Source: a virus (Duplodnaviria; Caudoviricetes). From it: a stretch of DNA of 54,511 nt. Positions within the stretch are counted from its first letter, which is position 1. Every line of letters starts with the position of its first letter. The translations under genes and the position numbers were made by a program. The stretch lies in IMG/VR virus record IMGVR_UViG_3300020450_000031, positions 1-54,511 of that record; one strand, written 5' to 3'. A model generated the notes under the pieces. It worked only from the letters and a program-made list of their open reading frames with translations, did no database searches and was not told the DNA's origin. Shown here piece by piece: positions 20,301-23,300 of this stretch.

Positions 20301-23300
20301 ATATCTGCCGTTGTTTTCTTTCGGCCCCATTTGATATATCTTTTGGAACGCCTCATTTATTTCTCTGAATACATCTAGGTCTTGATCGCTTATCTGACGA
20401 TCAATGTTTTTCATACTCTGGATGTTACCTTCAGCTAATTTTGCAGCAGCTATGTATTTACCCATAGCAACTTTAGCAGCTAGATAGTTCACAGCCCTAC
20501 GCATATCCACGTATGCTTGATACATTTCTTCGTGTCTCGGATTGGTAAACTTACCATCAGGGCCAATGTCACTTAGTGGCTCACCCAAAACTTTATCTAA
20601 TGTATGTGTGCGTTGGTTTGCTTCGCTACCTTCTGCGTATGGTATGCCTTGTTTTAGTTGTTCTCTTGATAATGTAGCTCTTTCTACAGCTACATCGAGA
20701 GCCTCATCATTTATCATAGGCTCGCCAGACACAGGGTCTTTTATGATTACATCTGGTGAGTTACGTATGTCAGCGTCAGATGTATTTTGTGCAAAGAAAG
20801 CGTTACCATAGGCAAGCATCTCACCAACGGCTAACTTTTCTTTCTTGTTAAGTCCTGTACCTAAACCCCAGAAGTCTGCCTTTGTAGCACGTTGAGTCAT
20901 ACTGTCTAACTCTGACAATATCTGACGAGCTGTAGCTGCTTGTCTTCTAAATACGTCAAGTAGTTTTGTCAGACCAATACTACGCAGAGCTGTGTTGTCT
21001 AGTGTTTGTAGGTATTCAGCTGCAGCCCCAAACACTCTACCAATATTTTTACCTTTGCCTTTACCTTTGTTTAGATAATCTTGCAGGTCTTTAGGATCTA
21101 AGCCTGGGATACCCATGCTAAATCCTTGCTCACCAAGGTTTACTCTTGCTGCTGAGAATCTACCAACGTCAGACTCGTTAAGACTTTCTATGTTTTCACG
21201 TAGTTGATCTGGTGATACAAAGCCAGGGATCTCACCATCACGCACATAACGTCTCAACTGGTTGACCCAGTATGAAGCACCATCATGCTGGAATGGAATA
21301 CCAATCCTACGTAAGAAGTTTTTAATAACATCCCAAACACGTTGTAATACACTGGCATCCATGTTGGCTACATGGTCAGCTAGAGCTTCTTCTATAGCTT
21401 CTAGTTTACCGATACCATAGACTTCCATCTGTGCATCGGCTGCGGCTCTTATGTGTGCGCTTGTGTTGTAGATGTTTTCAAGAACTGATTTTAATTGTTT
21501 AGTATTTAATATCGAACGTAGCCCAAAGTGACCGATTGTTTCGTGAGCTAGAATAAATTTTAGATGTGTGTCATTCTCTACAAAGTCAGTAAAGATTATG
21601 ACTTCATCACCAATAGAAAAACCAGATGCGTTAGTAGTTTCAAATTCAGGTTGAGCTTTTACTGCTCTATCAAACAATGCTTTGTTTTTACTACGTAGTT
21701 CAGCTGCATTTCTAACGATAGTTACTTTAGGTTTGATAGCTAGCTTAGAAAGAAACGCTTTGACTGCAGCACGAAGCTGTATAGGATTCATTGGATTAGA
21801 TGGCTTGTCGTTATCATAACGTCTAAAGTTACCATTACGATCTTTTAGCTCATCAAGTACACTACGTGGTTTGTAATACTCAAGTTGTTCTTCAGCTATG
21901 TAACCAGCTTCAAAGAGTTCTTTTTCTTCTTGTGCTAGTTTTGCTCTTTGTTTTGCTCTTTCTTTTGCCACTCTGTCAGTTATATCAACAATCGGCTCGC
22001 CTTCTTTTTTAGCTAGTCTTTTAGCAGCACGTTCTTTTTTACGTGACTCTGCCAAAGTAGCTGCTGTCAGAACTAAGTTTCCGTTTGGTTGTTCTTCAAA
22101 CTTTACCTTGCCGTTAGTATCAAAGTACTCAGATAAAGGTGCACCGTTAAACCTGTAAGTCATGTCGGGTTTAACTTTTTCAAGACCTGCAACCATACGC
22201 TCTGCAGCTTGTACAGACCTATGGTTTCTATTACTGAGGTTGCGTGTATTCTGAATAACTTCTAGTTTTATAGCTATGTTTCTGGCTAACTCTATTGGGC
22301 CAGTCTTAGGATCACCATACCTAGAAGCAGCTAAAGTACCAGCTTTGTTTAGGTCTTTTTCATTTGCAATAACATCCAACCTAACCTGCTCTTGTCTAAG
22401 GTTGTTTGCTACCATAAGCTCACGAACACCCTGCAGGTTACTTTGCTCTAAGCGTTGTTGTAACTCTGGTAGAATACCTAGCTTAGAAGCGTACTTAAAC
22501 CAACTTGGTCTACCAGTAAACTGTAGGTCATTTATGTTAAGTCTTAGTTGTTCTATAGCTGTTTCTCTGATTGTCTCTGGCATATGCACCCGTGCATTCA
22601 GTAAGAAACTAGCTGCTCTATCTTTAACACCTTTAGATGCTTGGCTTGTTTTTGAAAAAGCAATAGCCATAAGTTCCGCAAGAACATCAGGCATTTCAAA
22701 TTTTGTTGTATCTTCGTATATAGCTTTGAGTATATCTACTTGAATACCTTCAGGTAGAGTAGCTCGTAAAGATGGATCTTCCCATACCTGTTGCATGTCT
22801 GCAGCAGACATTACTGATAATGTTTCTTTAACACCTTTTTGATCTGTAAAGTCATTAAGTGATGGATATTCTTTGTACGGCTTGTTTGCTTCCCAGCGCT
22901 CAGCGGGAGTTTGTGTGACAACAGGTTGTGGTGTCTTTGTCTTTACCTCTTCACGTTCTGCGACTTGAGGATCAACCTTTTGTGTGCCACGCTTTAGAGC
23001 CGCTACCTTGGGCTTGGGTTTCGCCTCAGGTTGAACACTCGGTTCTTTGACTTTCGCTTTGCCTTTTTTGAGCTTTTCTTTAGCACGTACCCTGGGGGTT
23101 TCTTGTACTTCTTCTCCCACTCTTTCGCCATCTTGGGCTTGTTCTTGTGCATCCACCTGCGTTGTTTCTGGCTCTTGAACGGCATCTGGCTCCTCCTTTT
23201 TAGCTCTCCCTTTCTTTAGATTATCTGCTTTGGTTTGCTTTTTTACTGCACGTTCTTGTGCATCCCTCATAAAATTGTTTACATCAGTAAAGTCACCATC

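Follow-up and report, generated by a model that had tools for sequence, protein, structure and literature searches.

In lambda-like phages the spanin genes Rz and Rz1 are found in embedded, overlapped and separated architectures. Here we describe an embedded layout in another tailed phage, an uncultured one known as the IMG/VR virus record IMGVR_UViG_3300020450_000031 (Duplodnaviria; Caudoviricetes), where a small open reading frame (ORF) lies wholly inside the gene of a giant virion protein. The window, i.e. the whole stretch of DNA that was analysed, is 54,511 bp long and comprises the whole phage genome, with an IMG/VR completeness rating of 100%. The small ORF is a member of a phage protein family, MPFKS; the ORF, its ATG and its Shine-Dalgarno (SD) sequence are kept in related giant genes, and its frame is under purifying selection. 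Judged from the sequence, it is very probably a real, functional gene within the +1 frame of a giant PLxRFG virion-protein gene, translated by independent initiation at its own SD and ATG, and with similar confidence an embedded phage gene of a kind both new and widespread.

The embedded reading frame and its family

The minus strand reads AAAAGGAGGAGCCAG and then ATG-CCG-TTC-AAG, and according to the ORF list and its translation the product of 60 amino acids (aa) starts MPFKSQKQRRWMHKNKPKMAKEWEKKYKKPPG. The N-terminus of the nested peptide is MPFKSQKQRRWMHKNKPKMAKEWEKKY, and the host reads the same DNA in frame 0, from D898 onward, as KKEEPDAVQEPETTQVDAQEQAQDGERVGEEVQE. An earlier note on this DNA had pointed out a very basic 60-aa ORF with its own SD, wholly inside an ORF of 2825 aa, and the sequence is as described there. 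The features concerned are the following:

23003..23185, minus strand: putative embedded MPFKS-family gene, 60 codons and a stop, basic product, in the +1 frame of the giant gene
23192..23197, minus strand: SD core AGGAGG, inside AAAAGGAGGAG (23190..23200)
23105..23185, minus strand: conserved N-terminal module, residues 1-27, MPFKS..QRRWM...P.MA..W, a predicted two-helix hairpin
23006..23104, minus strand: Lys/Arg-rich tail, residues 28-60, predicted to be disordered (composition; predicted local distance difference test, pLDDT, about 60)
17400..25877, minus strand: host gene, encoding a giant virion protein of 2825 aa, last of the structural operon (ORF list, NF032893, phrog_11358)
17562..19046, minus strand: PLxRFG (tail-700) domain, host residues 2278-2772 (NF032893, 155 bits against a cut-off of 100)

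The AGGAGG (23197..23192) is separated from the nested ATG (23185..23183) by 6 nucleotides (nt). On the minus strand AGGAGG-N4-9-ATG occurs six times: long ORFs begin at five of these sites, and the nested ORF begins at the remaining one. A looser SD-like core is present at 25 of the 44 long ORFs of the genome. Further, the nested ORF is the only same-strand ORF of at least 60 aa in an alternative frame within the 8.5-kb giant gene. Since it also matches a profile of its family (E 2.4e-18, see below), the nested ORF is more than a chance occurrence.

The peptide is extremely basic, with an isoelectric point (pI) of 11.71 and 24 Lys and Arg against two Asp and Glu in 60 residues. Host codons 898-958 run in frame 0 across it. 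The earlier note took the host linker to be acidic and the charges of peptide and linker to be complementary. This is true for the first half of the overlap, where the first 33 host codons have a pI of 4.05 (10 Asp and Glu against two Lys and Arg), but not for the second half, and over all 61 codons the host stretch is balanced, 13 against 13.

A phmmer search of the peptide against 5.8 billion (5.8e9) clustered proteins returned 21 small proteins of 37-93 aa, with a best E of 2.8e-7 and up to 93% identity over residues 1-27. Most of them start MPFKS.KQR.WMH.NKPKMAK.WE and go on with a Lys/Arg-rich tail; three extend N-terminally beyond the family Met, probably as a result of mis-called starts. 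With a profile of 19 family proteins 2339 representative clusters (at the 50% identity level) are matched at E<=1e-3, and 200 at E<=1e-10, so the stand-alone homologues that the earlier note mentioned do exist. The match begins at residues 1-3 in 138 of the 150 proteins listed, and protein lengths range from 43 to 631 aa, which indicates that MPFKS is an N-terminal module on proteins with varied C-terminal parts.

The first family profile included the query, while a second was built from 88 other sequences with the query excluded. It is this query-free profile that matches the nested ORF at E 2.4e-18; the runner-up among the 1446 six-frame segments of the window has an E of 3.3, and the nested ORF is the sole family copy in the complete genome. 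All the family-invariant columns (P2, F3, S5, Q8, P17 and A20) are present in the nested peptide, and its tail is like the basic tails typical of short members. Among the longer members the module is joined to a NUDIX domain or, in P0037, P0044, P0118 and others, at residues about 35-98, to the phrog_6437 domain. This domain has no assigned function and is also found in T7-like cyanophages (P-SSP7, P-SSP2, S-B28) and in Flavobacterium elemo phages. Residues 24-77 of P0004 contain a motif common to tape-measure proteins of actinophages and Acinetobacter phages and to Streptomyces-phage 'endolysins'.

The closest PHROG of the family is phrog_1375, of 'unknown function', matched over the N-terminal module by P0022 (E 4.8e-9) and by four other members (E 2e-4 to 6e-3). 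In the protein atlas the neighbours of the peptide are viral 'hypothetical protein' clusters only. Two members are annotated in cultured phages, gp48 of Streptomyces phage FlowerPower (72 aa, 'hypothetical') and a 39-aa ORF of phage 023Pt_psg01. A tblastn search with the 60-aa peptide against 50,697 GenBank phages had no hits up to E<=10, for which the low-complexity filter is probably responsible; with less repetitive relatives as queries, cultured-phage members were recovered. With blastn the nested region had no match in the same phages. Among 185,579 species genomes just 52 loci were confirmed, nearly all of them on contigs of metagenome-assembled genomes (MAGs) under many phylum labels, indicating that the family is phage-borne and widespread.

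A literature search at the level of titles and opening lines of abstracts returned nothing on the family motifs or on embedded genes in giant or polyvalent virion proteins; the string match in PMC12919940 is a chance C-terminal string. Phage C75C1 (OQ984151.1, about 34579; L086:5001-5105) has an unannotated 34-aa family ORF between two small annotated genes in its head region, and also carries a giant gene across the record origin.

Selection and recurrence

The central part of the giant gene has relatives at three loci, which represent two distinct sequences, as L082 and L083 do not differ in the aligned region. Amino acid identity to the giant protein of the window is 70% for L082/L083 and 57% for L084. 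The ORF, the ATG and an SD (retained in L082, shifted in L084) are present in each of the three, as would be expected if the earlier note was right about a conserved gene. Between the window and L084 there is no difference in nested residues 1-37. The overlap has a nucleotide identity of 0.92 with L084, compared with 0.49-0.54 over the preceding 40 codons and about 0.5-0.6 farther 3'; with L082 the overlap reaches 0.95-0.98, and over the relatives as a whole the flanks are at about 0.49-0.75.

The position of the differences is informative. In nested codons 1-34 the window and L084 differ by eight substitutions. All eight fall on nested third positions and are silent in the nested frame, and each gives an amino acid change in the host protein (V>I, P>S, Q>E, E>K, R>G, E>K, P>T, A>P). 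Of the four substitutions against L082, two leave the nested peptide unchanged, and the remaining two, which are adjacent, together give K7S.

A set of 27 unique host genes of ~400 aa, independent of the window lineage, was used to calculate the entropy at each codon position. Outside the overlap variability is, as usual, highest at the third host position (about 0.8-1.2 bit). Within it the first host position, which is the third nested one, varies most (0.34, 0.44, 1.06 and 1.13 bit in successive blocks of 10 codons), while the third host position, i.e. the second nested one, varies least (0.07, 0.12, 0.68 and 0.72). This switch in the phase of variability is a signature of selection on the nested frame.

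How common is the embedding? IMG/VR holds at least 598 stretches that match the family pattern, of which at least 360 were confirmed and the best 80 analysed. Together with the 52 genome and MAG loci this gives a set of 132 loci, with the motif in 130 and none in two. At 62 of the 130 the gene lies inside a longer ORF of the same strand. This ORF has at least 1000 codons in 27 cases, in line with the nested copies that the earlier note had foreseen in other giant genes, 300-999 codons in 33, most of which are ~400-aa genes adjacent to the portal gene, and 150-299 codons in two. A further 67 are genes of their own, seven of these being the N-terminus of a protein of at least 150 aa, and in one case an upstream ORF of at least 150 codons runs with its end into the gene. 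Every embedded copy (62/62, with 55 distinct peptides) is in the +1 frame relative to its host. In the genome-set loci the other alternative frame never bears a host of at least 300 codons.

Translated in the host frame, each of the embedded copies gives D/N-A-[I/V/L]-Q-[E/K/I/V]......[V/L/M]-D..[E/K]. The earlier note had mentioned DA(I/V)QE-like linkers in other giant phage proteins. They do recur, but as the frame-0 reading of the MPFKS..WM codons: the linkers arise because the conserved ATG-CCN-TTC-AAR... and TGG-ATG codons are read one base earlier. The DAIQE..VD.QE linkers of the hosts are, in other words, a shadow of the embedded gene. A prohead-protease site, as in T4 biology, had been considered for the IQE/VQE of the host frame; this idea is superfluous, as the conserved nested codons permit no other residues there.

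The double reading is also visible in codon choice. In the embedded copies Phe is TTC in 45 of 45 cases, TTT being a codon that would give TAA in the host frame, and Pro is CCA or CCG in 44 of 45; the ATG is invariant (45/45). Among stand-alone copies Phe is TTT in 21 of 32 and Pro is CCT in 15 of 32. At five loci of the overlapped kind (L007, L021, L033, L043 and L102) an upstream ORF of 123-225 codons terminates within the MPFKS gene, and its final 28-41 residues are the DAVQE..VD.QE shadow.

The earlier note had further suggested that annotation would systematically miss such genes. In an exact look-up among ~15 billion predicted proteins none of seven embedded peptides was present (window, L082, L084, L028, L030, L048, L069), and all three stand-alone peptides were (L010, L016, L005), as 'hypothetical protein' where named.

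Could the nested ORF be the dead relic of a small gene, overrun by the fusion of two neighbours and conserved only for the needs of the host linker? Such a relic would agree with a host frame that is uninterrupted through the overlap, and with the nested third positions of the first 20 codons, whose variability is below that of ordinary synonymous sites and could reflect constraint on the host frame. However, all eight substitutions against L084 leave nested positions 1 and 2 untouched and alter the host protein instead, the flanks of the host linker are poorly conserved, 27 other hosts show the variability phase of the nested frame, the ATG is invariant and the SD is kept in relatives, so that a relic appears very improbable. 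The ATG is invariant though the host frame would tolerate other codons, and this argues against a +1 frameshift near the SD-like AAAAAGGAGGAG, by which the giant gene would yield a truncated N-terminal protein of ~900 aa with a basic tail and no free 60-aa protein. SD-like elements within genes can stimulate frameshifting, as in prfB and dnaX, and here one does lie inside a coding region, with A-rich sequence just upstream. But a +1-frame stop is found 10 codons 5' of the nested ATG in the window lineage, and usually 0-19 codons away elsewhere, the 30-nt interval contains no classical slippery site, and half of the family consists of free-standing genes that start at the same Met. A frameshift is therefore very improbable.

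Finally, nucleotide identity rises sharply at one place in a linker that is variable elsewhere, as a nucleic-acid element (an RNA structure, a packaging or a regulatory site) might bring about with no second protein at all. Such an element does not account for the three-base periodicity of the variation in the nested frame, nor for stand-alone members that vary their synonymous codons (CCT/CCA/CCG/CCC, TTT/TTC, TCN/AGY). The RNA of the start region is no more stable than shuffled sequences (z +0.52), SD and ATG are unpaired in its minimum free energy fold, and a promoter-like site was looked for near the nested start and none was found. We regard this as scarcely credible.

Context, product and origin

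The embedded gene sits within the minus-strand late structural operon of the phage, of which the giant gene is the last member. In order of transcription the operon contains:

51783..53162, minus strand: terminase large subunit (TerL), first in the operon
49311..51380, minus strand: portal, second in the operon
minus strand, between portal and major head protein: a 331-aa protein
47137..48042, minus strand: major head protein (phrog_267)
minus strand, between major head protein and endolysin: tail fibre-like proteins
33928..34380, minus strand: endolysin
31538..33928, minus strand: internal virion protein (phrog_511)
minus strand, between internal virion protein and giant gene: two proteins of 496 and 784 aa with no assigned role

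The giant protein matches phrog_11358 and resembles F116-like giant structural proteins at its C-terminus only. It contains the motifs HELGH and HETIGH at residues 739 and 1445 (window ~23663 and ~21545, minus strand). These look like zincin-type metallopeptidase signatures in the sequence, and a Pfam scan detected no domain at them. Two ORFs of 155 aa lie antisense to the giant gene, at 17845..18312 and 22276..22743 on the plus strand, and give no sign of being genes.

The hosts of the embedded copies are diverse. NF032893 was found in two of seven other giant-host C-termini tested (L001 and L069), with no detectable PLxRFG domain in the remaining five. When the giant protein and its neighbours were compared by phmmer with 654 ORFs of the 80 viral loci, L069 was the only giant host detectably related to that of the window; most other hosts are thus different or very distant proteins. 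The embedded copy of L069 is about as far along its host as that of the window, at residue 838 of 2715 as compared with 898 of 2825. Several of the giants without a detectable PLxRFG domain have a common conserved segment just 5' of the overlap. On the MAG contig L106 (4998-5174) a separate MPFKS gene starts 2 nt past the stop codon of an ORF that encodes at least 1665 aa, and residues ~250-600 of this ORF are homologous to the segment 5' of the embedded copy in other giants.

For the hosts of ~400 aa the gene order is terminase large subunit, portal, host and a virion structural protein (phrog_13704). Five of them had no match in Pfam or PHROGs, but residues 133-383 are 33-35% identical to gp27, a 339-aa 'structural protein' of Flavobacterium elemo phages. 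In these (L087, elemoE 6-9C) the gene order is the same, gp27 is without the N-terminal extension, and there is no MPFKS ORF in the 12.7 kb examined. Free copies are found between the terminase and portal genes (L010, L018, L035), directly 3' of the portal gene (L008, L038, L040) and, in phage 023Pt_psg01, between the portal and head protein genes. In total, at 53 of the 130 loci a portal gene, a TerL gene or both were detected on the same strand at a distance of up to 3 kb.

AlphaFold2, run with an alignment of 89 sequences, predicts helices at residues 6-15 and 17-26, with a pLDDT of 86-93 over residues 1-20. The tail (pLDDT about 60) has no predicted secondary structure and would be disordered. 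A complex prediction of the window portal with peptide residues 1-45 gave a score of 0.00 in a run without controls and bears neither way on binding.

From gene context and composition we tentatively suggest that the product may be a basic protein internal to the head, although we think this somewhat less probable than its being something else. The earlier note had proposed a DNA-condensing or ejection chaperone, likewise a putative role. On our reading the N-terminal hairpin would dock the peptide, or a longer fused cargo, to an internal head component, and the basic tail would bind the packaged DNA. By analogy with the layouts of Rz and Rz1, embedding could couple synthesis of the peptide to that of the internal virion protein.

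A real gene might also have another role, the module being a general tag or a host-directed effector, such as a regulator, or a nucleic-acid or ribosome binder active early in infection. In favour of this, the module heads very different C-terminal parts, those with NUDIX and phrog_6437 domains included, some members lie outside head modules, and the nested peptide has a weak match to a 'transcriptional regulator' PHROG (E 0.044). On the other hand, the gene recurrently adjoins terminase, portal and giant virion genes within structural operons, and the copy of the window is inside a late structural operon. Such a role is less likely than not, but a serious alternative.

It should be noted that a number of observations weigh against a functional embedded gene of the head. 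In the first 20 codons the nested third positions vary less (0.34-0.44 bit) than ordinary third positions, so the host frame or the RNA may also be constrained there. The loci are phylogenetically clustered, which means that the counts of embedded copies are not counts of independent events, and the uniform +1 frame could go back to few ancestral events. The nested peptide matches no Pfam family at E<=1 and no NCBIfam, and the window peptide (P0001) has no match to phrog_1375 at E<=1. Foldseek found nothing in the PDB at E<=0.001, and a profile search of PDB sequences returned only a 13-residue match to SH3BGRL at chance level (E 0.22). Further, 77 of the 130 loci, including all giant-gene loci, are without portal or TerL within 3 kb as judged by seeds of limited sensitivity, FlowerPower gp48 is located between a 'peptidase' and a holin, and the L016 copy follows a DNA polymerase gene.

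If the embedded gene is accepted, which of the two frames is the older? The earlier note spoke of an overprinted gene, implying that the small gene was laid over the giant one. The reverse is probably true: the small gene would be the older frame and the host linkers the newer reading. The small gene has a far wider distribution than any single family of hosts, and it often stands alone. In addition, the extension that covers it is absent from a cultured relative of the ~400-aa hosts, and the conserved nested codons fully determine what the host frame reads. Neighbouring giant virion genes, or structural genes of ~400 aa adjacent to the portal, may have grown or fused across it. The tolerated frame would read AAG-type Lys codons as GAA-type Glu codons, giving an acidic and hydrophilic linker, and the other frame would be rich in Arg. 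There would then be a simple reason for the uniform +1 relation, namely that only the +1 reading yields an acidic linker that can be tolerated.

A broader scenario is speculative, and we consider it unlikely to hold in full. MPFKS could be an ancient and widespread gene of tailed-phage head modules that was repeatedly overgrown by larger virion genes while it remained functional. The acidic DAIQE..VD.QE linkers of giant polyvalent and portal-adjacent proteins would be its shadow in a shifted frame, and one route to giant virion proteins would be fusion across a small gene that is still active. The layout might then have been kept for synthesis in step, and co-packaging, with the host in which the gene nests.

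Significance and comparison with known systems

With 2339 clusters at 50% identity MPFKS is among the more widespread small phage proteins. If the embedded gene is real, standard annotation overlooks an entire class of phage genes, and the family offers a clean natural case of long-lived dual coding in double-stranded DNA phages, represented by many independent sequences. A recurrent 'linker motif' of giant proteins is then explained as the by-product of a second gene. The family draws attention to a small basic protein associated with the portal/terminase region as well as with giant ejected proteins, with a possible part in head assembly, packaging or ejection. There is a practical side as well: engineering or codon-optimising such giant genes in ignorance of the embedded gene would silently destroy it.

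Among described families, the nearest Pfam-bearing atlas cluster of the peptide is viral, has proteins of about 55 aa and carries DUF3008 (PF11450). However, the atlas score is 0.81, 15% of the cluster carries the family, and the Pfam scan of the peptide itself gives nothing at E<=1. Several MPFKS members match phrog_1375 over the N-terminal module, but this PHROG comes with neither a function nor a note of embedded copies, and the window peptide is outside its reach.

The hosts are better known than the gene within them. The host of the window and those of L001 and L069 are members of the PLxRFG/tail-700 group of giant 'polyvalent' proteins (NF032893; annotated as F116-like or DarB-like), for which, within the scope of our literature search, no embedded second gene has been reported.

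In terms of function the closest analogue may be protein J of phiX174, which is likewise tiny, highly basic and encoded in a compact, overlapping morphogenesis region. By this analogy the logic could plausibly be the same, with one end docking to the capsid and the basic part binding DNA. No sequence or fold relation between the two was found, and for MPFKS a place in the virion and DNA binding are putative.

In terms of layout the closest system is Rz/Rz1. The MPFKS product differs from the spanins in being soluble and very basic, with neither a signal peptide nor a lipobox. Further, its hosts are virion or head genes rather than lysis genes, and a partnership with the host protein is putative. 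The genetic arrangement is nevertheless much alike. In both systems a small gene with its own start is wholly inside a larger gene of the same strand, in the +1 frame, and in both the pair is elsewhere overlapped or separated; for MPFKS we find 62 embedded copies, at least one overlapped copy and separated ones such as that of L106.

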